This document shows positions 9,658 to 63,769 of a stretch of DNA of 64,000 nt, in pieces. Position numbers and translations under genes: made by a program. The stretch comes from a virus (Duplodnaviria > Caudoviricetes), in the IMG/VR virus record IMGVR_UViG_3300032292_000698, positions 1 to 64,000 of that record, one strand, 5' to 3'. A model generated the notes under the pieces. The model was given only the letters and a program-made list of their open reading frames with translations. It ran no database searches and was not told the DNA's origin. Numbering within the stretch: the stretch's first letter is position 1; the number at the start of each line of letters is the position of its first letter.

Positions 9658-11263
9658 ACTTTAGATCACCGTCGTTCAATAAATCCATGTTTTTTAGTTT
9701 CTCGTTTACAGATGTACAAACCTTTTCTTCTACTGTCTTTGCAACAAATACAATCTTTTGAATACTCTTACTCTTTGCACTATCACGCCATACACGTCCA
9801 GTGGCTTGTCTCATTTGCACAGCAGAATAAGAAGGACTAATCAATGCCAATCTAGGATGTTTACCGTTCAAATCGTGTAATGACAATCCAGCACCACCAG
9901 CTGCAATATTGACCAGAATAATACGTTCTTTGTCTGCCTGAAACGCATCAATACTGTTTTGTCGATCAACATCTGATACAACACCATTAACAATACACTT
10001 GGTTCCAAGACGTTTAGATAGTGCATCAATTGTTTCTGTAAAATTCAAAAACAACACTACACTCATGTTGTTTTCCAATGCTTCTTCTACCATTTCCACA
10101 AACAATGGAACCTTCACCAGTTCCACCTTTTGTCTGGCTCTCAAAATAGCAGTCAATTCGCTTGCACTATCTAGTTTTTCCTTTTTGATCTTCTTCTTGA
10201 GTTTAGCAAGTTCCGCTTCCATTTCGTCATAAATGGAATTGATCTTATTTTGTGCTTCTTCTTCCATGTCATAACATTCGGCACTGATTTGACTTTCTGG
10301 AAAGTTTGGAATTGTATCTCTTGTAAGACGTGAACCCCGATTAACAAAAATATCTTTGTGAAGTTTCTTCAATACATCTTTGTTGTTGTTGAATTGAAGA
10401 CCAAATCGTCCTTTTGATACTCCATGAGCATACAACCACTGATAATACTGACGGTTGTTTTCAAACAGTTTTATTGCCATTCCCACCGTTTTTAGTTCAA
10501 GAGGATTTGTTGCGTTAGTAGCACTACAAAACAACATCTTGTATTTTTCTTTGAGTGCCAACAAACACACTTCACTGTTTTTGGTGTTGGCTCCTTTCAA
10601 CTTTTGACTTTCGTCCCAAATAATCAAAGTAGACTTGGGGATTTTCCATTTAAACTCTTCTTTGTGAGTTTTTCTGTTCTTCACATAAGATGCAATCAGA
10701 GAGTCACTACGTCCCATACGAAGAAGTTCATAGTTGATGATGCCGATCAAACGGCTTTTCATCTTGAAGTGGTTGAATATAACCCGTTTCCAGCTCTCCA
10801 TAACCGCTTTGGGACACACGATCAGAATGTCCATGTCCAATTCACGGGCAACACCGCATGCGACGTAGGTCTTACCGATGCCAACGTCACTGCCGTCAAT
10901 TCCACATCCCCATTTATTAATCACCGAACACAACTTAGCAACACTTTCAACCTGCCAAGGTCGTAGACCATCCGAATGTTTCATCACATGAGGTTTCAAC
11001 ACTACATCTTCTGATATCAGTTCCTTCTTATTGGCTTTAGATTTGCTAAATTGATCTTTGGTGGTTTGTGTCTCTATCAAATACCAATCGTTGTCTCGTT
11101 TGGAGACACTGTAACCTTTATCTTTGAGTTTGAAGTTGTTAGTCTTCCAATATACAAAGAAAGGATTACGATATTCAGTGGGTATAAGCCACTCTCGTCT
11201 CCACATTCCCTTTTCATCTGCCATTTGGTAGGGTTCACCCCACTGAATATCCAAATTGATCAT
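9644..11263 (-). CDS. SF2 (SNF2-like) helicase
   Basis: LRPWQ, DVGIGKT (Walker A), IWDESQ, SAT, AGGAGLSLH, QATGRVWR. Likely start at 11263. Confidence 0.9.
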   Translation of the reverse strand: MINLDIQWGEPYQMADEKGMWRREWLIPTEYRNPFFVYWKTNNFKLKDKGYSVSKRDNDWYLIETQTTKDQFSKSKANKKELISEDVVLKPHVMKHSDGLRPWQVESVAKLCSVINKWGCGIDGSDVGIGKTYVACGVARELDMDILIVCPKAVMESWKRVIFNHFKMKSRLIGIINYELLRMGRSDSLIASYVKNRKTHKEEFKWKIPKSTLIIWDESQKLKGANTKNSEVCLLALKEKYKMLFCSATNATNPLELKTVGMAIKLFENNRQYYQWLYAHGVSKGRFGLQFNNNKDVLKKLHKDIFVNRGSRLTRDTIPNFPESQISAECYDMEEEAQNKINSIYDEMEAELAKLKKKIKKEKLDSASELTAILRARQKVELVKVPLFVEMVEEALENNMSVVLFLNFTETIDALSKRLGTKCIVNGVVSDVDRQNSIDAFQADKERIILVNIAAGGAGLSLHDLNGKHPRLALISPSYSAVQMRQATGRVWRDSAKSKSIQKIVFVAKTVEEKVCTSVNEKLKNMDLLNDGDLKYEKN

Positions 11264-13429: not shown

Positions 13430-13710
13430 CCTTTCAGTATTTGTTTGATTTGAGGCGCCGTCACTTCATTGTGACTCAACACACCCAGTTTGCCCTTCAA
13501 CATTTGTAATGCTGCCTTTGGATTCATACGTCCACAATTGAATGCAAGTATACCATGGGCTTTACAGAAAGACTCCAATTCATCAATATCTGATTGAGGA
13601 AATTGTTGAACAGGAGGAAGAGTTGTATCCTCCCCCTGTTTCTTTCTACGAACCAACGATTGAAATATAGGATCGTTGACCGATGTTCCAATTTCAAGCG
13701 AGTTCATATA
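13426..13710 (-). CDS. Hypothetical protein
   Basis: About 94-97-aa ORF coupled to the upstream gene; start uncertain. Confidence 0.6.
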   Translation of the reverse strand, partial: YMNSLEIGTSVNDPIFQSLVRRKKQGEDTTLPPVQQFPQSDIDELESFCKAHGILAFNCGRMNPKAALQMLKGKLGVLSHNEVTAPQIKQILKG

Positions 13711-15475
13711 CTTCTTCAAGTTTCAAGAAACGGTGTTTGCCAAAATCAGTTACAACCTTTTTTGGGTCATACCAACTTGGAAGTTTTCCACCGCTTCTTT
13801 GTTGTTTTGTGAGATGTACATTCAAAAAGTGATTGGATCCTTTAGTGATGTCTTTTAAAGTTCCACTCTTTGCTTGTTGTACCAACTTTATAGCTTCTTT
13901 GTATTTAGAGTGATTCTTCTTGGAATCAATGAACTTTTTAATGTCATTAACATCCTTTTTATTTACCTTATTCCACCCACTAAACTGTTTTGGTTTGAGA
14001 CACTCCATTGCTGCATTACGTATATTGCCTTTTGCACGGTTCATGATGACGTTCAATACAGCATGCATGCCTTCACCCGCATTCTTTTCTCCACCAGCTT
14101 CATCTACAAGAGTGGCTGCAATAATATCTTCAACAGTATATCCGTATTGTTGTGAAGTTGCTGATACCGTTTGTGGTGAAACTGTTTTTTCTGGAGCAGC
14201 ATCCGCTTTGGGAGCACCCAACATAGATGTAGCAAGCGCAGTTGTTGCCAACGCTTGTTTCCAGTTTTTCCAAATTTCGTCCATTTGTTCTTCCGTTAGA
14301 TTTTCAGGTAACGCTATTCTGAAATCTTTTAGTCGTTTACGATCACTATCTATGACCAGCGCAATGTCTGGTCGATCATCTATGAACTTTTGAATTGCGT
14401 CAAGAGCTTTTTCTGAAATTTTTGGATAAATTCCTTCATGTCCATTTTTATAAAATCCACCACCCATGTCATATTGATCAGGAACACTATCCACAACAAT
14501 TCCGTTAGGTAGTCTTGAAATTTTAATGTATCCCTTCATGAATGCAGACTTCATGGGACTATCATCCACCATTTGAATATTTCTCTTCAAACGATTGTCA
14601 AGAACCCATTTTTTGTGATTTTTGTTTGCGTTAATGATTTCACCATCTGGAGATATCCAATATGAAGCACGATCTTCAGTCTCCATATCTTTTGGTTTTG
14701 GATTGTCTACAGTAGATCTAAATCCCATTGCTTGTGTTCTACGACGTTCTGGGTCATAAAAGTCATCACCTTCATCCAATTTTCTACCTTCTGGACCAAA
14801 ATGATCCAAATGGTGATATACATCATCAAGATATTCACCTGCTAAATTCAACTTGGCTTTAACCCAATCTTCTAATTTAGTCTCAGGTTTCAACATGGTT
14901 TGAAGTTCTTTGGCATCATTGTTGAGTTGTTTCAACGCACCCATAGCCATGTAACTATTACCAATATCCTCAATCAACGCTTCAACTAGATCTTTCAGTA
15001 CATCATTGTACAGTTCCACTTCACTCACAGAACTACTCTTGGTACGTTTTCCGGCCTGTCTAGCTCTACGACCTGCACAATGTGCTCGTTGACTAAATCC
15101 TTTTGGATGCGAACAATCAATACCCTGTTTGTATTTTCTACTCCACTTTTCGTTGATTTGATCTTCGGGAGTTCCAGCTTCTTTTTCGTCACGGTAAAAC
15201 TTCAAATAATCACGAACTGTGGCAACATAATCACATGCATGATTGAGTTTTGCTTCCACCCAATCCTCAAGATCCTCAGATGGATTAAACATTTTCTGTA
15301 GAGCTTCACTATACTTGATAAGTTTAGTTACATCACTCATAGCCATTTCAGCATTTTCAACCTGAACTTTCAATTTACCCACATGATGTTTTACATCGGT
15401 ATTGACAGGGTGGTCTGGATCTCCAAATCCTGTAGACATCGAGCGTTCCCATTGATCTTTAGTTAATTCATTCAT
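13694..15475 (-). CDS. Modular protein with C-terminal SleB/Hydrolase_2 cell-wall hydrolase
   Basis: IAATLVDEAGGE...GMHAVLNVIMNR...PKQFSGWN...DITKGSNHF...PSW...GKHRF; two LEDWV.AKL modules; Cys/His module KWSRKYKQGIDCSHPKGFSQRAHC. Confidence 0.85.
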   Translation of the reverse strand: MNELTKDQWERSMSTGFGDPDHPVNTDVKHHVGKLKVQVENAEMAMSDVTKLIKYSEALQKMFNPSEDLEDWVEAKLNHACDYVATVRDYLKFYRDEKEAGTPEDQINEKWSRKYKQGIDCSHPKGFSQRAHCAGRRARQAGKRTKSSSVSEVELYNDVLKDLVEALIEDIGNSYMAMGALKQLNNDAKELQTMLKPETKLEDWVKAKLNLAGEYLDDVYHHLDHFGPEGRKLDEGDDFYDPERRRTQAMGFRSTVDNPKPKDMETEDRASYWISPDGEIINANKNHKKWVLDNRLKRNIQMVDDSPMKSAFMKGYIKISRLPNGIVVDSVPDQYDMGGGFYKNGHEGIYPKISEKALDAIQKFIDDRPDIALVIDSDRKRLKDFRIALPENLTEEQMDEIWKNWKQALATTALATSMLGAPKADAAPEKTVSPQTVSATSQQYGYTVEDIIAATLVDEAGGEKNAGEGMHAVLNVIMNRAKGNIRNAAMECLKPKQFSGWNKVNKKDVNDIKKFIDSKKNHSKYKEAIKLVQQAKSGTLKDITKGSNHFLNVHLTKQQRSGGKLPSWYDPKKVVTDFGKHRFLKLEEVYELA

Positions 15476-16554
15476 AGTTCAGATAAATATTGTTTTACAG
15501 ACGCAACAACTTCTTCTTCTGGAGTGTTATCCAAGTTGTCACCATACTTCTTGTTCAAAAAGTCTTTAACTTGTCCTATAACCTTGCCTGGCTTCAAATT
15601 GAAGGTGTTTATGAGCCAGTCACCGGTATACTTGTCGGTCTTGATAACGTCGGCATCCAACTTTTGTTTTTCTTGTTCCACCTTTTCATACAATGATGGA
15701 AACAACGTCTTGAAAAAGTAATCATCATCCTGTACGGTACGACGTTGACCACTCAACATCAATTGATCACGAATGTATTGAGCAGACTTACGTTCAGCAC
15801 GCATCTTCTTTCGATCACCACGATTCAATTCACCTGCAATTTGACGCACGTCAAACAATGGAGATGTCTTGATATACTCAACGATATCGTCTTCGCTCTT
15901 GATGTTTGAGAAGTTGGTGTCAACTTTACGAAATCCAAGGATCTTTTGAGCTTCACGCAAATTCTTGGTGATCAAGATATCACGGTTTTGACCTTTTTTA
16001 TCAACAAATATCTTGAAGAATCCTTCGCTGCCGTATTTGAATTCCAATTTACGAGCAATTACACCTACGATTCCTGAAAAGTCGTTGTATGCAAGATAAT
16101 CCTGTTTGTTACGAGCATCTTCTTCGTCTTTAGCAACGATAAAATCGATATGAACGTGTTTATCCAACTTATCTGGGGTGTACAAAATGGAAAAAATGTT
16201 ACCGTTGGTAGTAGCAAACTTCTGATTTGGTTGGTAAACCAGTCCATTTGATGTTGCAACTGGTTGGGATGATGTGTTTGATGTGACATTATTACCCAAT
16301 GTGTTCAAAACAATATCACGGGTGGATTGTCCCATAGGAGGTACAACCACGATGTCAATATCACCGTGATCCATACGACTCGACAACTTGGTGGTGTTAT
16401 TGAAGCTAGAAAACTTCTTGGCAAGTTTCTTTTTCAACTCACCAAATACACCATGCATTTCTTCGGTAGTGACTCTGTTGGACAATGATCCAAACAGTTT
16501 CTTACTATTTTCCTCCGAAATGATTTGTTTGACAATCTCACTTAGTTTGATCAT
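15472..16554 (-). CDS. Pol-beta/PolX-fold nucleotidyltransferase-like protein
   Basis: DHGDIDIVV, VHIDFI, ARKLEFKYGSEG (PolX-like), C-terminal TGDWLI..FNLKPGKVIG (CCA-enzyme tail-like). Confidence 0.7.
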   Translation of the reverse strand: MIKLSEIVKQIISEENSKKLFGSLSNRVTTEEMHGVFGELKKKLAKKFSSFNNTTKLSSRMDHGDIDIVVVPPMGQSTRDIVLNTLGNNVTSNTSSQPVATSNGLVYQPNQKFATTNGNIFSILYTPDKLDKHVHIDFIVAKDEEDARNKQDYLAYNDFSGIVGVIARKLEFKYGSEGFFKIFVDKKGQNRDILITKNLREAQKILGFRKVDTNFSNIKSEDDIVEYIKTSPLFDVRQIAGELNRGDRKKMRAERKSAQYIRDQLMLSGQRRTVQDDDYFFKTLFPSLYEKVEQEKQKLDADVIKTDKYTGDWLINTFNLKPGKVIGQVKDFLNKKYGDNLDNTPEEEVVASVKQYLSEL

Positions 16555-17462
16555 GTATCTTTCAATATGTCGTTAAGTATATCAGTTAACCTGATAGAAG
16601 TTGGTTTGTCAACTGATTCATTCTTTTTCTTTTGCCAAGAAACTGGACTTGGACCTTTTTTCTTACTGGTTCCCGTTTTATTACATTGTGATGGTGTTGG
16701 ACGGCATGCTGGATACTTGGCTCTTTTCTCACCAGATTGACGACCACACGATTTACATTTCTTCGTTCCTGTCTTTGGATCTTTACGACATGTATTACAG
16801 TCAACCCATCCCTTTCCACCTTTACCTCCACGACGTGCAAACCATCCATGTAGACCTTGTTTCTTTTCTTTACTAAAGTCTTTTTTCTCTTCTAACTCAA
16901 CAGATTCTTCTTTTTTCTTCCAAATTTTACCTCTTCTGCATTGAACTATTGCACCCGATTTGTAAGCAGAGGTTTTTGAACCATACACACTATCTGCTTT
17001 TTTATGACATCTATCTTTCTTCTTTTTAAGTTCATCTAAAGATGGTTCGTCAATATCAAGTTCAACTGCTGCTGTTGGTCCCACTGGATCACTGTCCTTT
17101 ACCTTACCTTGAGGAGTTTTATTCATTGATCCCACCACATTATTTCCGGGTGTACAGGATACAGTGTTTCCAAGACGAGCTTTATCATTGAAACTCTGTT
17201 TTGGATCACCAAAGCCAGAGTTGGCTTGTGGTTGAAACTCTTTGGCAAGTCCAGCAGCCACCAACTTGGTATAATATTCTGGATCTTCGGTCAAATGATC
17301 CAATGCAATTTCGGTTGCAATCTTTTCATTGTTGGTATGTTCCATTTCTATTTGAACACCTATTGCAAGTTGTGAAGGATTGACAGTAGAAGGTGCAGTC
17401 GCATCACCAACTCCACCTTTTAGTTGTCCATCTTCGTTGATAAAAAAGTCTTTATACTTCAT
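16551..17462 (-). CDS. Modular phage protein (DUF5661-like module plus Cys/Lys-rich modules)
   Basis: GVQIEMEHT...IATEIALDHLTEDPEYYTKL; DRCHKKA..SAYKSGAIVQCR; GLHGWF..GWVDC..YPACRP. Confidence 0.7.
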   Translation of the reverse strand: MKYKDFFINEDGQLKGGVGDATAPSTVNPSQLAIGVQIEMEHTNNEKIATEIALDHLTEDPEYYTKLVAAGLAKEFQPQANSGFGDPKQSFNDKARLGNTVSCTPGNNVVGSMNKTPQGKVKDSDPVGPTAAVELDIDEPSLDELKKKKDRCHKKADSVYGSKTSAYKSGAIVQCRRGKIWKKKEESVELEEKKDFSKEKKQGLHGWFARRGGKGGKGWVDCNTCRKDPKTGTKKCKSCGRQSGEKRAKYPACRPTPSQCNKTGTSKKKGPSPVSWQKKKNESVDKPTSIRLTDILNDILKDT

Positions 17463-17656
17463 GGTCTGTTGTTACTCTTGTGTTTATGTTGTGAAGCTTC
17501 TTTTTCTGCTTGTTGCATTTTACTGTAACCATTAGAAGGATATGCATAATCGATTTGCCATCTACGACCTTTCATCGCTGGATGACCAATCAATGGATCT
17601 TGAATTTTCTTCTGTGATCCAATAATATACCAATCTCCCGGTGGTTTAGAATCCAT
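17459..17656 (-). CDS. Hypothetical protein
   Basis: 65-aa ORF overlapping both neighbours in a coupled manner. Confidence 0.55.
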   Translation of the reverse strand: MDSKPPGDWYIIGSQKKIQDPLIGHPAMKGRRWQIDYAYPSNGYSKMQQAEKEASQHKHKSNNRP

Positions 17657-19535
17657 AATTGCGTCTCTTTTTCTTTTCTTCCCACTTTTCGTCCATCAAT
17701 TTCTTGATTGCTTCAAAGTTGCCATATTTTTGTTCAACACGTTCACGTGTTTTGGATTCATTGGCCATATCACGTATGATATTTCCAATCTTTTCCTTTT
17801 GAGTTTCGTTCATTGGTTGTTCTTTTTGTTTTTCTTCCGCAATCTGATCAATTCCGTCAATAATAAAGTTAGAAACCTTACTAATAATCCTTTGATTCTT
17901 AATTACTGTGTCTTTGTCTGCTCTCCACAATGCAAGATATGTCGCACTATGTTTTACTGGCAAATCATAATTTCTTAAAACTGTATAGGCTACTGCTTCT
18001 GCTTGAAGTTCTGCCTGTTCACGGAGGATCAACGACCACCAGCTGGAGCTGGAATTTGACGCTTCTGCTTGAAGTTCTGCCTGTTCACGGGTTAACTTTG
18101 ATGTATATTCATCACCAAAAAATACCGAACTGTCTTTAAAATGAAGCAGTGAATGTGCAATTTCGTGAATCAACGTAGACAAACGATTCAATCCAGAAAC
18201 ATTGCTTGTCAAGTTAATATGGTCACCTCTTGCCCATCCCATTTCTCCACCTTTTGCGTCACTATGAGTAACCTTGATGCCTTTATCTTTACAGAACTCT
18301 AAAACATACTCATAAATTCTGTCAGCAGTTTCACTTGGAGTATTAGGATCGTGCCATTCAGGACTTTGAGGCGTAATACCTTTTTCAGCAGCATTTGTAT
18401 CAGCAATATCAAATACTGGAACTGCTCTAAAATACATTCTGGTTCTATCCGTTACTTCCTTACCTTCGGATCCATCATCATTTGGTTTTAGTTCTTCCTC
18501 TTTTTTAGTAATCGGAGCATAAATCCAAATAGCCTTGGCTCCTTTATTTACAGATACACCCATCTTTTTCCACGCACTAAATCCAGCAACATAGGTTGCT
18601 TTTGGGTTTTGAATGAAAATCAATATGCTGTTATTAAAACTATATTTTCTAAATCTCTTCTTGAAGTTAAGATATTCAGCAACTTTTCCACTTGTTGCCT
18701 CACCTTGTACGGCATCAGCCAATTCTTTGATAAAGTTATCAATCTTGATAGCTAACTCTTGGTTTCTACTGATCTTTGAATCATCTGCAACAAACGAAGG
18801 CAAGTCTTCGATCTTTTGAATCAAATCTTCCAGTGTCGAATTACCACCAGTTGGTTCGATCCACGTATTTTTACGACCGTCCCATTTAAAGCCAGAATTG
18901 ATATTACGAATCACAGAAGTAGCAATACCAAACTTATCTAGTCCAATTGTCCATGCAGTAATAGCAGGATCCCATCTGAATCCGTTGGCTTTCAACGCAT
19001 CCTTGTTACGATATGTTTCATTACCGGCTTCCTTTGGATTCTCAAGTGTTGATACTACAACGATTGAATCATCTTTACGACGAAGGTCTAACTTTTCGTT
19101 TAGATCCTCTTCTTCAAGCAAAAGTGGTTCATATGACTCGTTCATCATATCAGGAGTCATACCCAACATACCTAAATCACGATAGTAACGTGGATTTTCC
19201 TTTAGATTTTGAACAACGGTTTCTTTTGCAACCATTCGATTCTTGTAAATCTGTTTCTTGAGTTCATACTCCATTCCCTGACGAATATCGTCTGGAGTGA
19301 CCTTCATTTTAACTACATCGACATCTTTTTTGTATTGTTCAGGATCGATCTTGGACTTGATATCTTGATCAACCGGAGGAACAATATTGACGTTAGAACT
19401 GTCGGCGGGAAACGATCCGGGGTTCTGAGTCACATCTGGTGATGCATATGTACCAGATTGACCCGAAATTGATGGTTGTCCACCAATTGGAATCTGACTC
19501 ATGTTATATTCTTTGAAGAAGTCTTTGTATGTCAT
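17646..19535 (-). CDS. Modular protein with ArdC-like N-terminal ssDNA-binding domain and zincin (HExxH) metallopeptidase domain
   Basis: FRKYSFNNSILIFIQNPKATYVAGFSAWKKMG.SVNKGAKAIWIYAP...FRAVPVFDIADT; TLIHEIAHSLLH...ELQAEAVAY...HSATYLALW. Carries a 22-aa in-frame insertion. Confidence 0.88.
   Translation of the reverse strand: MTYKDFFKEYNMSQIPIGGQPSISGQSGTYASPDVTQNPGSFPADSSNVNIVPPVDQDIKSKIDPEQYKKDVDVVKMKVTPDDIRQGMEYELKKQIYKNRMVAKETVVQNLKENPRYYRDLGMLGMTPDMMNESYEPLLLEEEDLNEKLDLRRKDDSIVVVSTLENPKEAGNETYRNKDALKANGFRWDPAITAWTIGLDKFGIATSVIRNINSGFKWDGRKNTWIEPTGGNSTLEDLIQKIEDLPSFVADDSKISRNQELAIKIDNFIKELADAVQGEATSGKVAEYLNFKKRFRKYSFNNSILIFIQNPKATYVAGFSAWKKMGVSVNKGAKAIWIYAPITKKEEELKPNDDGSEGKEVTDRTRMYFRAVPVFDIADTNAAEKGITPQSPEWHDPNTPSETADRIYEYVLEFCKDKGIKVTHSDAKGGEMGWARGDHINLTSNVSGLNRLSTLIHEIAHSLLHFKDSSVFFGDEYTSKLTREQAELQAEASNSSSSWWSLILREQAELQAEAVAYTVLRNYDLPVKHSATYLALWRADKDTVIKNQRIISKVSNFIIDGIDQIAEEKQKEQPMNETQKEKIGNIIRDMANESKTRERVEQKYGNFEAIKKLMDEKWEEKKKRRNYGF
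17995..18090. repeat. Perfect 30-bp direct repeat flanking a unique 36-bp insert (CRISPR-unit geometry)
   Basis: GCTTCTGCTTGAAGTTCTGCCTGTTCACGG at 17995-18024 and 18061-18090; insert AGGATCAACGACCACCAGCTGGAGCTGGAATTTGAC at 18025-18060. Confidence 0.97.
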
Positions 19536-30555: not shown

Positions 30556-33099
30556 TTAGAATTCAAAAAAGTTTGCTGCAGCTTCCCAATTTTCATTGGG
30601 ATAATCCCACTTCAACACGTTGTAGAACTCCATCAACTTGCTCTTGAGTTCCTGTTCATACATTGCATCTCTGTCAATATACTTCTCAATAAAGTCCAAA
30701 ATAGGTTGTGGATCTGTTCCGTCAGCCTTCATAGCCATACACTCCACTCCAAACTCATTTTGTTTTACATAAACCCACTTGATCTTTTGTCCGTGAAATA
30801 TTGGCGGAATAATCTTTGTGAGACCATACTTTTCCAATAGATCGTTGTAAATCAAAGCAGCTTTCACCTGAGCAGGAGTTCCACTGATAATTTGAAACGG
30901 CTGTCTCCCCTTCGGATTGTAATCCTTCTTCTTATCCAGACTCTTGAACTTCACACTGGTATTCTTAGCAAGTTCAATGATGGTATACTCTTTCATTTTG
31001 GATTTGAAATCCAAAATCTTCTTATTGATGGTTTGTTCATCCACGTTCTTCAGAAAGTCAATCAGAATTTCTTTCATGAACACACGGAACTTGGCAGGAA
31101 ACGAAGTTCGTACAACGTCAATTCCCTTGACTTCCAATTCGTCACATTCCACACCACCCTTGTTGATGATGAACTGACAATACCGTTTCTTTGCCAACCA
31201 GAAAGATGACTTGGAAATCACTTCTTGTTTTGCATCAAATCGATGGTTCTTGACATTAAACAAACGAAGTGCCATCACATCAAACATCTTGTTGACATAG
31301 TTTTGAGCTTCACCTGTTACTTTCAGAATAGCTTCAGTCATTTGCTTTTCATCATTCATATCAATGTCGGGCATCGTTTTCTTGATGATTGGCAAAGCAC
31401 TAGCAAAACATGAATCGGTATCAACGTAGATTACATAATCCTCTCCTTTAGCATCTTCGCCAAGAACGTTTCTGTAATATTGATTGATCGCCATGTTTGC
31501 TGTCTTAATGATACTGACACCACTCAAGGTTACAGCTTCAGCGTTGTCCTTATCATAAAACCGAAACACTGGCAGACCCAAACAACCGTAAATGGAGTTG
31601 AGCAAAATCTTTTGCACCTTCTGACGTTGATCGTAGAACTCATACATTTCCCAATTCTTTTCTTCAGCATACTTACTGGCCATCTTACGCATTTCTTTGC
31701 GTTGATTGAACCACTTAATCAAAATGCTTGGAATTGTACCTTCTTGTCCCGTTTCTTTTGGCAAACGATACACAGCACCATTACTAGCAACACTCAGATT
31801 ATTCTGAATCAACATGTCACTGAACTCTTTGGCACTATACTTTTGACCACTCAAGATCACTTCACTCAATTTTCCCCGAACAAAGTCTTCAGCATTCCAG
31901 TTTTCAACCTTAGCTATCTTGGTCTCAGGGCTGATGTTAAGGCTGATGATGATATTCGGATACATTGATGTGAGGTCCAAATCAAACACCCAGTTATACC
32001 TGCCAGGAACAGGATCTTTAACAAACGCACCTTCAAATCCCTCTTCTCCTTCTTCAAGTCGTTGTTCATATTCTTCTCGTCCTTCCACTGGTTTATTTGG
32101 AGCAACACGTCCCTGACGACGCAAATACATCAAAATTGCACCTTCAAGATAACGTGATGAAGTTCCAAATTGTTCATATCCAACGTGTCCGGTATGACAA
32201 ATACGACGAGCCAGATCAATGAATTGTAACTTTTTATCCAAAGCCACAACGATCTTAACGTCGTTCAAGTTGTAATCAATGTACTTCTTGATGTCGTCCC
32301 TGTACAAGTCATTCAAACTTCCGGTATAACTGATCTTTTCGATATTGACCACCTTTTTACCGATAGCACCTAGAGTGTAACTTGGTTCATTCTTACCACT
32401 GAACTTCTGATACAAAGTCAGATAGTCCATACAAGATACACCAGCCACAACCATACGTTTGGAATACGTATTGTAATAACACTCCTGAATGGGACTCAAC
32501 CGTTTGGCAAAGTGAACACCCATCACTCGTTTGATACGATTATACAAATACGGCACGTCGAATCCGTCAATGTTCCATCCTGTAATGATCGTAGGTTGAA
32601 TTTCTTCCCACTTGTTCATGAAATGACTAATCAACGACTCTTCGTTATCATAACTCAGAATTGTAGTTTCTTCAGTCTCACTGTCTTGAAGTTTACCTTC
32701 TTTGTCCAAGATAAAGGCGGTATACTTCTTCGTCACAGAATCATACAAAGCAATAGCAGTAAGTTCCTTGTCTCCTTCTTCCACAACGGGAAATCCACCT
32801 TCGGAACTCACCTCAATATCGAAAAAGACAACACGATGTCCCTTGGAAGGTTCATCACTATCCTCATAAGCATCAATCAAGACACGTGTTTCAGAAGGAA
32901 CATCTCCTTCAAAAACAGACGGATCATTTCGATTGAACATGGTGACCTTTTCAAGTTCATCACCATACACTGAACGATACCGTCCTCCGGGTTTCTTACG
33001 ATACGCATACTTTGGCATGGGAAACTTGACATAACCCTTTTCGTCATCCCACAAATGCACTTCATCAGTCTTTTTGTCGATATAAATGTTCTGATACAT
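30556..33099 (-). CDS. Family B DNA polymerase (gp43-like)
   Basis: ExoI FDIEV, ExoII GWNIDGFD, ExoIII YNLND; DLTSMYP, KILLNSIYG, YVDTDS, KKRY. No intein seen. Confidence 0.97.
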   Translation of the reverse strand: MYQNIYIDKKTDEVHLWDDEKGYVKFPMPKYAYRKKPGGRYRSVYGDELEKVTMFNRNDPSVFEGDVPSETRVLIDAYEDSDEPSKGHRVVFFDIEVSSEGGFPVVEEGDKELTAIALYDSVTKKYTAFILDKEGKLQDSETEETTILSYDNEESLISHFMNKWEEIQPTIITGWNIDGFDVPYLYNRIKRVMGVHFAKRLSPIQECYYNTYSKRMVVAGVSCMDYLTLYQKFSGKNEPSYTLGAIGKKVVNIEKISYTGSLNDLYRDDIKKYIDYNLNDVKIVVALDKKLQFIDLARRICHTGHVGYEQFGTSSRYLEGAILMYLRRQGRVAPNKPVEGREEYEQRLEEGEEGFEGAFVKDPVPGRYNWVFDLDLTSMYPNIIISLNISPETKIAKVENWNAEDFVRGKLSEVILSGQKYSAKEFSDMLIQNNLSVASNGAVYRLPKETGQEGTIPSILIKWFNQRKEMRKMASKYAEEKNWEMYEFYDQRQKVQKILLNSIYGCLGLPVFRFYDKDNAEAVTLSGVSIIKTANMAINQYYRNVLGEDAKGEDYVIYVDTDSCFASALPIIKKTMPDIDMNDEKQMTEAILKVTGEAQNYVNKMFDVMALRLFNVKNHRFDAKQEVISKSSFWLAKKRYCQFIINKGGVECDELEVKGIDVVRTSFPAKFRVFMKEILIDFLKNVDEQTINKKILDFKSKMKEYTIIELAKNTSVKFKSLDKKKDYNPKGRQPFQIISGTPAQVKAALIYNDLLEKYGLTKIIPPIFHGQKIKWVYVKQNEFGVECMAMKADGTDPQPILDFIEKYIDRDAMYEQELKSKLMEFYNVLKWDYPNENWEAAANFFEF

Positions 33100-61720: not shown

Positions 61721-63769
61721 TTAGATTTTACTTGTACTGCTCAAAAACATATCATTCAAAGTCTTAGCCACACTCACAATGTTGGTCACATCAATATAAC
61801 GAGCATCTTGACCATACATCGTTTTGAAATGTGGCTGTGACTGTGCATTTTCGTTTCGGTTTCCAATGTAATACGATAGAACGGTATATCCCTTCTTTCG
61901 GATTTCATTAACCTGTTTACGGGTATGATTCGCTCCATTCTGGTAACTGTAGTGAATGTATGCACCGTTCTTATGATAACTGTAGCAAGGTTCACCATCA
62001 GAAAAGTTCACAAAGTAACAATCCTCGTTTTCTTCCTTATCACGCAACATATCCATGATAGCTTCAAAACACAATCCCTCAGGAGTGCTTCCATTAGCAA
62101 CCAAATACGGAAACATATTACGAACCTTGGCAAATGAGTCTTTCGTAGAATCATACACCATAGCAATATACGGAAGTGAATTACCCCTACTAGTAGCACG
62201 AATACTCACACTCACTTTCAGATTGTTAATCATTGAAGCAGCCTTACAAATGGCGGTTGCAGCAGTAATAGTCTTTCGCCACTTATCACCAACCATACTA
62301 GAACTAGCATCAATACTGAGATGAAGATAAGCATGCTTGTATTGATCAACCTCGTTACGATAAAACACGTTCTCATTAGAGATACCAAGTTCAGCCAATA
62401 CACGTCGATCAATCTTACCCATTGACTTTCTCATGTACTTAGTAACATTCACTTCACTACGAACACTCAGACGTTTACCCAACAGATTGCCAAGTTGAAT
62501 ACCACGATTCACTGCGGCAAGAGTATCAGGATCAGGATTTCCGGCCAAATCAAAACGTGAACACGGAAACTGATCAGACATAAGAAGTTCCTTGGTAAGG
62601 TTCTTCACAACCACACACTCAACACCAGAAGTGATCGGAGAACTGTCGTCCATCTTGGTTCCAACATTGACAATCGTCACTCCAGCCTTTTCAAGATCAC
62701 CCAAAATCTTGGCTTCACGAGCAGTAACCTTACGTTTCTTGATTTGACCAAGAATAAACGCCTTTTGTTTGTTCAAAGCCTTATCAATCAAATTACGTTT
62801 GGATTTAGAAACGCCAGACTCTTCGTTTTTCTTTTTGGTAGTCTCTTCATTTGACTGTGCAGCACTAGAATTGCTACAGGTAGATTCAACACCACCGAAA
62901 ACGTTACTTGCACTGGAACCAGACACATCAGAACCACTATCAGAACCACTATCAGTGCCATCAACTATCACAATGATACTTGAACCAGATTGTTCTGAAC
63001 CAGCATTTTCTTCTTTCTGTTGATCTTGTGTGTCAACATTGGCATAAATGATCTTACACACTTCTACTGCCACGTCAAAACGATCTTTGGTAGTGGTAAG
63101 ACGACCAATATTCTTGAGATCAAGAACATTAGCAATATCACGAAAACCAGGCAAAGCATCCAGATCGGTGTTACGATTGACGATATTGATCAAACGAGCA
63201 TCATAAGATTGAATAGTCTTACTACGATACAGTTCGGACTTCAACATCGAATCAACGTGTTTACTGTGGAAATACTTTTCATACAGAGCCAGATAATATC
63301 CACGATAACCGGGAGCGGTTTGATAAACATAGTTATCAATAAACCGATCCTCGACAACGTTGTGAACATTCTTCAAGAATTCCACCACTTCCATCTTGGA
63401 AAATCCCTTGGGTCCAGCGATATCGTACAACTCACGGGGAACATTCTGCCAAATATCTGTGACAACACGGAAATCAGTCAAGGCAACATGTGATCCCTCA
63501 TGGAGGGCCAGACCCACCATCGTATCAAAATCTTCAGGATTCTCAATGTCAGCGGACAAATAGACCGTTTTACCATCGGTCATATTTGCATCAGCGTCGT
63601 TGTAAATAACAGGAATAGACTTTCCAGTAAGGATGTTAACAAAATTGGAAATAGCTCTCCGGGTCATATTCATACGAATAAGACGAGCAGTATCATCCTG
63701 ACTTTCAAACTCTTCAAAGTCGAAGTCATCCATCCAAAAATCAGAATGTATTGTAGAGTTGTTCTTCAT
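61721..63769 (-). CDS. Metallopeptidase-like + vWA domain protein (MoxR partner)
   Basis: TDGKTVYL, GLALHEGSH, NVVEDRFID; Ser-rich linker; MIDAS SIDASSSM, GSTPEG, NFSDGEP. Confidence 0.88.
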   Translation of the reverse strand: MKNNSTIHSDFWMDDFDFEEFESQDDTARLIRMNMTRRAISNFVNILTGKSIPVIYNDADANMTDGKTVYLSADIENPEDFDTMVGLALHEGSHVALTDFRVVTDIWQNVPRELYDIAGPKGFSKMEVVEFLKNVHNVVEDRFIDNYVYQTAPGYRGYYLALYEKYFHSKHVDSMLKSELYRSKTIQSYDARLINIVNRNTDLDALPGFRDIANVLDLKNIGRLTTTKDRFDVAVEVCKIIYANVDTQDQQKEENAGSEQSGSSIIVIVDGTDSGSDSGSDVSGSSASNVFGGVESTCSNSSAAQSNEETTKKKNEESGVSKSKRNLIDKALNKQKAFILGQIKKRKVTAREAKILGDLEKAGVTIVNVGTKMDDSSPITSGVECVVVKNLTKELLMSDQFPCSRFDLAGNPDPDTLAAVNRGIQLGNLLGKRLSVRSEVNVTKYMRKSMGKIDRRVLAELGISNENVFYRNEVDQYKHAYLHLSIDASSSMVGDKWRKTITAATAICKAASMINNLKVSVSIRATSRGNSLPYIAMVYDSTKDSFAKVRNMFPYLVANGSTPEGLCFEAIMDMLRDKEENEDCYFVNFSDGEPCYSYHKNGAYIHYSYQNGANHTRKQVNEIRKKGYTVLSYYIGNRNENAQSQPHFKTMYGQDARYIDVTNIVSVAKTLNDMFLSSTSKI

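Follow-up and report, generated by a model that had tools for sequence, protein, structure and literature searches.

What kind of event could write, in frame into a phage gene, a single unit with the proportions of one repeat and one spacer of a CRISPR array? The question is raised by a 64,000-nucleotide (nt) stretch of viral DNA (Duplodnaviria; Caudoviricetes; IMG/VR record IMGVR_UViG_3300032292_000698, positions 1 to 64,000), hereafter termed the window, in which the gene for an ArdC-like protein contains an exact 30-nt direct repeat (GCTTCTGCTTGAAGTTCTGCCTGTTCACGG), the starts of its two copies 66 nt apart, around a unique 36-nt insert. The best explanation, to which the 30/36 geometry leads us to assign an even chance of being correct, is off-target (“non-canonical”) spacer integration of the Cas1-Cas2 type. 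A fuller account is advanced tentatively, at somewhat under even: a CRISPR adaptation integrase of the host misfired into the DNA of a phage, probably a jumbo phage, that was infecting the cell, and a foreign spacer, together with a repeat-length duplication, was thereby placed in frame within the catalytic domain of its ArdC-like protein; the edited phage survived, and its allele now circulates in lakes.

The anatomy of the unit, established by reading the window and by a repeat search, bears out what a first-pass annotation of this DNA had reported. Coordinates, flanking bases and a mismatch search agree on an exact 30-bp repeat with sharp edges around a unique 36-mer: the preceding base is T at copy 1 and C at copy 2, the following base is A and G, respectively, and the insert is single-copy in the window even when up to three mismatches are tolerated. 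Translation of the open reading frame likewise returns the reported REQAELQAEA-SNSSSSWWSLIL-REQAELQAEA, with the additional 66 bp in frame, and a recount of guanine plus cytosine (GC) gave the same values, the repeat having 16/30 and the insert 19/36. By script, the only other exact direct repeat of at least 14 nt lying within 200 nt of its copy anywhere in the window is a 17-nt tandem at 62927, and in 30 Markov shuffles of the window local exact repeats never exceeded 14 nt. That second case, at 62927-62955 with 12-nt spacing (ATCAGAACCACTATCAG), is a short in-gene tandem repeat. On direct reading, the ends of the 36-mer show no microhomology to the native sequence beside the 30-mer and the 36-mer carries no terminal inverted repeats; the two strands of the duplicated segment have G and C, respectively, as their 5' bases. 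Two candidate origins were rejected on this anatomy. A 66-bp tandem duplication followed by divergence does not fit a 36-mer that is unlike the adjoining native sequence. A transposon footprint fits neither the lack of terminal inverted repeats nor a 30-bp duplication, which exceeds the 15 bp or less that, to our knowledge, transposases and casposases leave as target duplications.

Relatives of the gene display the site without the unit. The closest homologues are 607 residues long, and 12 of 12 align with a clean 22-residue gap; all 127 homologues compared are free of the insert, the gap at the DNA level being exactly 66 nt. The expectation that homologues would lack the 22 residues therefore held among the close and the more distant sequences. 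The commonest non-insert allele is 98.85% identical to the window over 1,824 nt. Two synonymous variants are common to both 30-mer copies of the window and are absent from non-insert relatives, from which it follows that the duplication arose within this lineage and that the copies have not diverged since. Additionally, Logan contigs from four sequencing runs (X1-X4, of which X1 and X2 are two samples of one study and possibly the source samples) were placed on the region. In X3, from another lake metagenome, two contigs jump directly from 17994 to 18061, and one of them, with a 30-mer identical to that of the window, represents this lineage's unoccupied site.

The occupied site is found in the remaining runs. 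Logan contigs are assembled at k=31, with which the observed 30-nt overlaps are consistent. X1 and X2 each cover the region with three contigs, one ending at 18024, one comprising the 96-nt repeat-insert-repeat and one starting at 18061, with overlaps of exactly 30 nt, the break pattern expected of a 30-nt repeat in a k=31 graph. In both samples the 36-mer joins only the 30-mer on both sides, with no branch to other spacers. Depth over the unit is 23.8 against about 41.7 for the flanks in X1 (57%) and 18.6 against about 21.5 in X2 (87%), suggesting, from depth, that roughly 57% and 87% of genomes carry the insert and that the site is polymorphic; a k=31 graph cannot directly display the empty allele where the 30-mer is identical. 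X4, from a different study, supplies a 151-nt contig (17992-18142) identical to the window and including the whole unit, together with a divergent strain that skips the 66 nt. Finally, the 629-residue protein is recorded on four contigs, of ENA and JGI origin, which reach 121,194 bp in the longest, a scaffold. The 66-bp insertion is real and not an assembly loop. That its two copies are identical, and that the allele occurs in more than one study, indicate a recent insertion, at least tolerated and probably still segregating in a wild freshwater phage population. A pair of identical 30-bp direct repeats with only 36 bp between them is easily lost by precise deletion, and the empty alleles found beside the insert may therefore be ancestral or revertant.

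These contigs also bear on the second reading put forward in the first-pass annotation, which takes the 36-mer for a CRISPR repeat and the 30-mer for a spacer, introduced by array recombination or by an assembly loop through a host array, and on the related prospect of a chimeric assembly or sequencing product. Although the 36/30 sizes fit type II and VI-B arrays, and although a 30-nt repeat equals k-1 at k=31, so that such graphs cannot prove linkage, the unit is a closed 96-nt element at sub-flank depth in two samples, where a genuine array would be expected to branch to further spacers and to have its repeat covered more deeply. It recurs in the X4 contig from another study, and the protein that includes it stands on four contigs from two sources, including the 121-kb scaffold. 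The recombination variant was rejected because recombination at an array spacer gives a spacer, a repeat and a different spacer, whereas here two identical 30-mers flank the 36-mer. The 36-mer has no neighbour but the 30-mer on either side, the viral, genome and metagenome collections do not contain it elsewhere, and an Rfam search with E values up to 10 returned no CRISPR-DR family and no match. The proposed CCAGC/GCTGG hairpin does exist, with a 5-bp stem, but its significance was not upheld (z-scores of -1.6 and -1.9; about 5% of shuffles fold equally well). Taken together, we give these explanations hardly any credence.

Which activity, then, would leave a 30-nt duplication around a 36-nt insert? 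The duplication falls within the length of CRISPR repeats (about 24-48 bp), and a 30-bp repeat with a 36-bp spacer is the ruler of type I-B/III-associated arrays. Cas1-Cas2, the CRISPR adaptation integrase, is the only class of enzyme known to duplicate 24-48 bp of target around a blunt insert of 30-40 bp, and it is favored because it yields these sizes. In the proposed sequence of events, the integrase, which would be the host's CRISPR adaptation machinery acting during an infection that the phage survived, would cut into the two strands of the phage DNA at joins staggered by 30 bp; between these joins a foreign duplex, blunt-ended and 36 bp long, would be ligated, and gap filling would then duplicate the 30-bp target. 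The allele would persist with its 66 bp keeping the frame and adding no stop, and with the extra 22 residues borne as an enlarged loop.

Off-target integration is already known, both from in vitro work (PMC6698737) and from E. coli cells in which Cas1-Cas2 was over-produced (Nivala et al. 2018, cited in PMC6698737, PMC7054753, PMC11788318 and bioRxiv 10.1101/148544), and the phage unit, so read, is a further, natural case that is unusual in its wild-phage gene target and its segregating allele. Like the neo-CRISPR units attributed to non-canonical Cas1-Cas2 integration (Nivala, Shipman and Church 2018, Nat Microbiol 3:310), it has a single insert of spacer length, around which a non-CRISPR target is duplicated over the length of a repeat. 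Its anatomy is that of a neo-CRISPR-like seed; it does not qualify as a CRISPR array, since the “repeat” is an unstructured stretch of phage coding sequence that is conserved. The in vivo neo-CRISPR units reportedly lie in the E. coli genome and arose with over-produced type I-E Cas1-Cas2, with circumstantial cases in two other species; the phage unit differs in that its target is a coding gene of a wild phage, its geometry is 30/36, its occurrence is natural and polymorphic, and its integrase is one that we infer. In vitro, Cas1-Cas2 of Pyrococcus furiosus inserts 37-bp spacers at plasmid sites other than CRISPR, with paired events 30-31 bp apart on opposite strands and a preference for G, then C, at the joints (PMC6698737). 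While the spacing, the spacer length and the joint bases G and C of those full-site events resemble those of the phage unit, the enzyme is archaeal and acted on plasmids in vitro, and its off-target sites resembled the CRISPR repeat. Among the literature searched, no paper describes off-target Cas1-Cas2 integration in a wild phage genome.

An identical end product would, however, be left by repair of a staggered break without any Cas enzyme, if two nicks about 30 nt apart gave long 5' overhangs that were filled in and end joining captured a stray 36 bp of “filler DNA”. Blunt, microhomology-free junctions suit the ligation of filled-in ends, no Cas1 or host array is tied to the event, and it is one event in 738 kb; yet the sizes of 30 and 36 match the CRISPR repeat and spacer rulers exactly (PMC6698737), and bacteria seldom join ends with capture of a fragment. 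Filler DNA and templated insertions at large, whether by end joining or by microhomology-mediated break-induced replication (MMBIR) or fork stalling and template switching (FoSTeS), share with the phage unit the placement of short unrelated DNA at a break, whereas the phage unit lacks a local template and microhomology and is flanked by an exact 30-bp duplication. We know of no bacterial or phage process that combines 30-nt staggered breaks with the capture of a spacer-length fragment, and regard repair of this kind as a possible, if unlikely, origin.

The composition of the 36 bases gives a hint of their source. GC by codon-position class is 8, 1 and 10 of 12, a spread reached in only 0.1% of shuffles, and the plus-strand frame RINDHQLELEFD follows the usual coding pattern of higher GC at first than at second codon positions with high GC at third positions (GC3). 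The gene in which the insert lies has a GC3 of 0.30, with no 12-codon stretch above 8/12. It is suggestive, and only that, of a scrap of a protein-coding gene from GC-richer DNA foreign to the phage; the earlier remark that the plus-strand frame resembles such DNA thus gains support from the three-base periodicity. Searches for the parent sequence were negative throughout. The longest match within the window is 11 nt, typical of shuffled versions of the insert, and five related phage records (674 kb) hold no match of at least 25/36, leaving the idea that the 36-mer occurs elsewhere in this phage without a match in either set. The exact 36-mer is absent from IMG/VR viral contigs, and its 28-mer core is absent from JGI metagenome contigs and from genome contigs (one genome each for 185,579 species). 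Three 20-mers searched against viral contigs gave only four chance matches of 20-21 nt, in contigs of 57-67% GC, and codon-degenerate patterns for two open frame classes led to no source. Against phage and plasmid records, blastn returned at best a match of 27/29 nt (E 0.03) in a Pseudomonas megaplasmid, judged to be chance.

The same data address replicative template switching (MMBIR/FoSTeS-like), in which a polymerase would leave the template after the 30-mer, copy 36 nt from an unsampled part of the phage genome, probably of about 300 kb, or from other DNA in the cell, and return upstream of the 30-mer. The window covers only 64 kb of the phage and the records of its relatives are 35-49% complete, which leaves room for an internal source; however, there is no above-chance template in the window and none in the 674 kb of relatives, and the insert GC3 of 10/12 is unlike the phage gene value of 0.30. 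Template switching is disfavored because neither junction carries microhomology, and we consider it distinctly unlikely. A still different origin would be as the remnant of a site-specifically integrated element, whose shared 30-bp attachment (att) core gave rise to attL and attR and whose interior was later reduced to 36 bp. Integrated elements are flanked by direct repeats of 15-60 bp, and the 30-mer would suit such a core; but two rare steps are required, the internal deletion must spare both cores and the open frame, neither an integrase nor an element with this core is seen in the relatives, and the 36-mer lacks terminal inverted repeats. An att remnant is accordingly very improbable.

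Integration by Cas1-Cas2 has its own difficulties, and they should be set beside its fit to the geometry. As the first-pass annotation had proposed, a captured spacer within a repeat-length target duplication stands as the best-fitting mechanism; the donor, the host array and Cas1 that would complete it were not found. No protospacer donor emerged from IMG/VR, the 185,579 species genomes, the JGI metagenomes or the phage and plasmid records. Five related phage records, 35-49% complete, contain no Cas1 or Cas4. No host was identified, and the analysis tied the phage to no array of 30-nt CRISPR repeats with which the 30-mer might be compared. A scan for further duplications flanking unique inserts detected a single clean unit in 738 kb of the lineage, with no recurrence, and IMG/VR holds no second allele at the site with a duplicated core and a gap of 30-60 nt. 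The k=31 contigs alone cannot link flank, repeat and insert in one molecule. Lastly, there is selection bias, in that a scan over many windows is bound to bring up some rare events whose CRISPR-like size is coincidental. A second repeat-gap-repeat candidate, at 10979-11262 of the related locus L026 (the same array is in L034), was rejected as an ordinary tandem repeat, AT-rich with a 51-nt period, about five copies and 72% matches.

The gene that received the insertion (Table 1) encodes protein P0001. Its match to PF08401 has an E value of 1.5e-11 and 45 bits against a cut-off of 22.6, whereas its match to the M78 zincin family PF06114, at 21.3 bits, lies just under the Pfam cut-off of 22; of the original description as an ArdC-like/zincin gene, the ArdC-N part is thus well founded and the zincin part falls narrowly below threshold. 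H457, E458 and H461, together with the downstream E-L-Q-A-E, are invariant in 26 diverse homologues (about 40-47% identity). In 127 homologues the E[LIVM]Q[AS]E motif occurs once, 25-36 residues from HExxH; P0001 alone has two copies, at 30 and 52 residues, within the local reading KLT REQAELQAEA SNSSSSWWSLIL REQAELQAEA VAYTVL.

Table 1. Coordinates of the repeat-insert-repeat unit and of the gene that carries it.
Feature	Position in window	Strand	Description
Duplication copy 1 (putative target-site duplication)	17995..18024		Downstream copy on the gene strand; REQAELQAEA followed by VAYTVL
Unique 36-nt insert	18025..18060		SNSSSSWWSLIL in the minus-strand gene frame; open, coding-like RINDHQLELEFD on the plus strand
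Duplication copy 2	18061..18090		Upstream copy on the gene strand; keeps the canonical 30-residue distance from HExxH
Insertion-bearing gene, protein P0001 (629 residues)	17646..19535	minus	ArdC-N with putative C-terminal HExxH gluzincin domain (M78/IrrE-like)
ArdC-N (PF08401), residues 259-375	18411..18761	minus	Single-stranded-DNA-binding-type domain (Pfam)
HEIAH, residues 457-461	18153..18167	minus	Predicted HExxH metal-binding/catalytic motif (homologue comparison)

In ArdC of plasmid R388, the metal ligands are both histidines of HExxH and a glutamate of the “glutamate helix” that comes next (PMC7213743). The 30-mer that is duplicated in the phage may, by analogy, encode the start of this helix, and the downstream copy, which runs into the native VAYTVL, would rebuild an intact helix behind a loop larger by 22 residues. 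Tolerance of the extra residues by P0001 is plausible, since the frame is kept, the insert is free of stops and an intact helix would be restored by the downstream copy. The domain order of R388 ArdC (PMC7213743), in which ArdC-N precedes a gluzincin domain with HExxH and, beyond it, the glutamate helix, has its likeness in the phage protein, where gluzincin and helix are putative; the phage protein, a candidate anti-restriction protein, differs in having an additional conserved N-terminal part of about 250 residues. PDB sequence searches with P0001 gave no useful match. The first 130 or so residues of the ArdC-like protein are almost invariant across relatives, and its N-terminus is near-identical to that of the product of a DUF5661 gene at 16551-17462 on the minus strand (MTYKDFF and MKYKDFF, respectively). 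The same minus-strand block includes, at 13694-15475, the gene for a 593-residue protein with a C-terminal cell-wall hydrolase domain (PF07486), a placement that fits a set of virion-delivered, early-acting proteins.

If integration by Cas1-Cas2 is the correct explanation, the locus documents an instance, from nature, in which the machinery of CRISPR adaptation wrote DNA into a virus instead of the array; such machinery would then mutate phage genomes in nature and be a new source of in-frame insertions in phage genes. The phage would also have gained a repeat-spacer-repeat seed, and in this lies a possible origin of virus-borne mini-arrays. Medvedeva and colleagues and Faure and colleagues are said to have described, in 2019, virus-borne mini-CRISPR arrays or solitary repeat units. 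These share with the phage unit a repeat-spacer-repeat within a viral genome; however, their repeats match host CRISPR repeats, and the units are intergenic and presumed to be processed by host Cas proteins, whereas the phage unit has for its “repeat” a conserved coding stretch native to the phage and free of significant structure. The unit would serve in addition as a host-linking marker, the length of the duplication reporting the length of the host repeat. Should the explanation fail, the unit would be an uncommon scar of DNA repair, harmless to the phage, in one of its accessory genes.

As to the phage itself, related IMG/VR contigs (loci L017-L025; G001-G005) are 109-172 kb long with CheckV completeness of only 35-49%, and for this reason the lineage is probably one of jumbo phages of roughly 300 kb or more, in which case the 121-kb scaffold would be a genome fragment. 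The 64-kb window contains no transfer RNA genes, and the look-alikes of RmlA are of mixed taxa and give no pointer to a host. The family-B DNA polymerase encoded at 30556-33099 on the minus strand shares 45% identity with its counterpart in Microcystis phage Mel-JY01 (190 kb), the sole cultured relative, all other cultured phages lying below 30%, and this likeness may be taken as a weak hint of a cyanobacterial host. Very long and highly repetitive Gly-X-Y (collagen-like) coding arrays of GGTACATCG units occur in the relatives, at 1-2000 of L026, 1-1000 and 13400-15500 of L033, and 9580-10000 of L045, and such arrays, at contig ends, probably limit assembly of the lineage.

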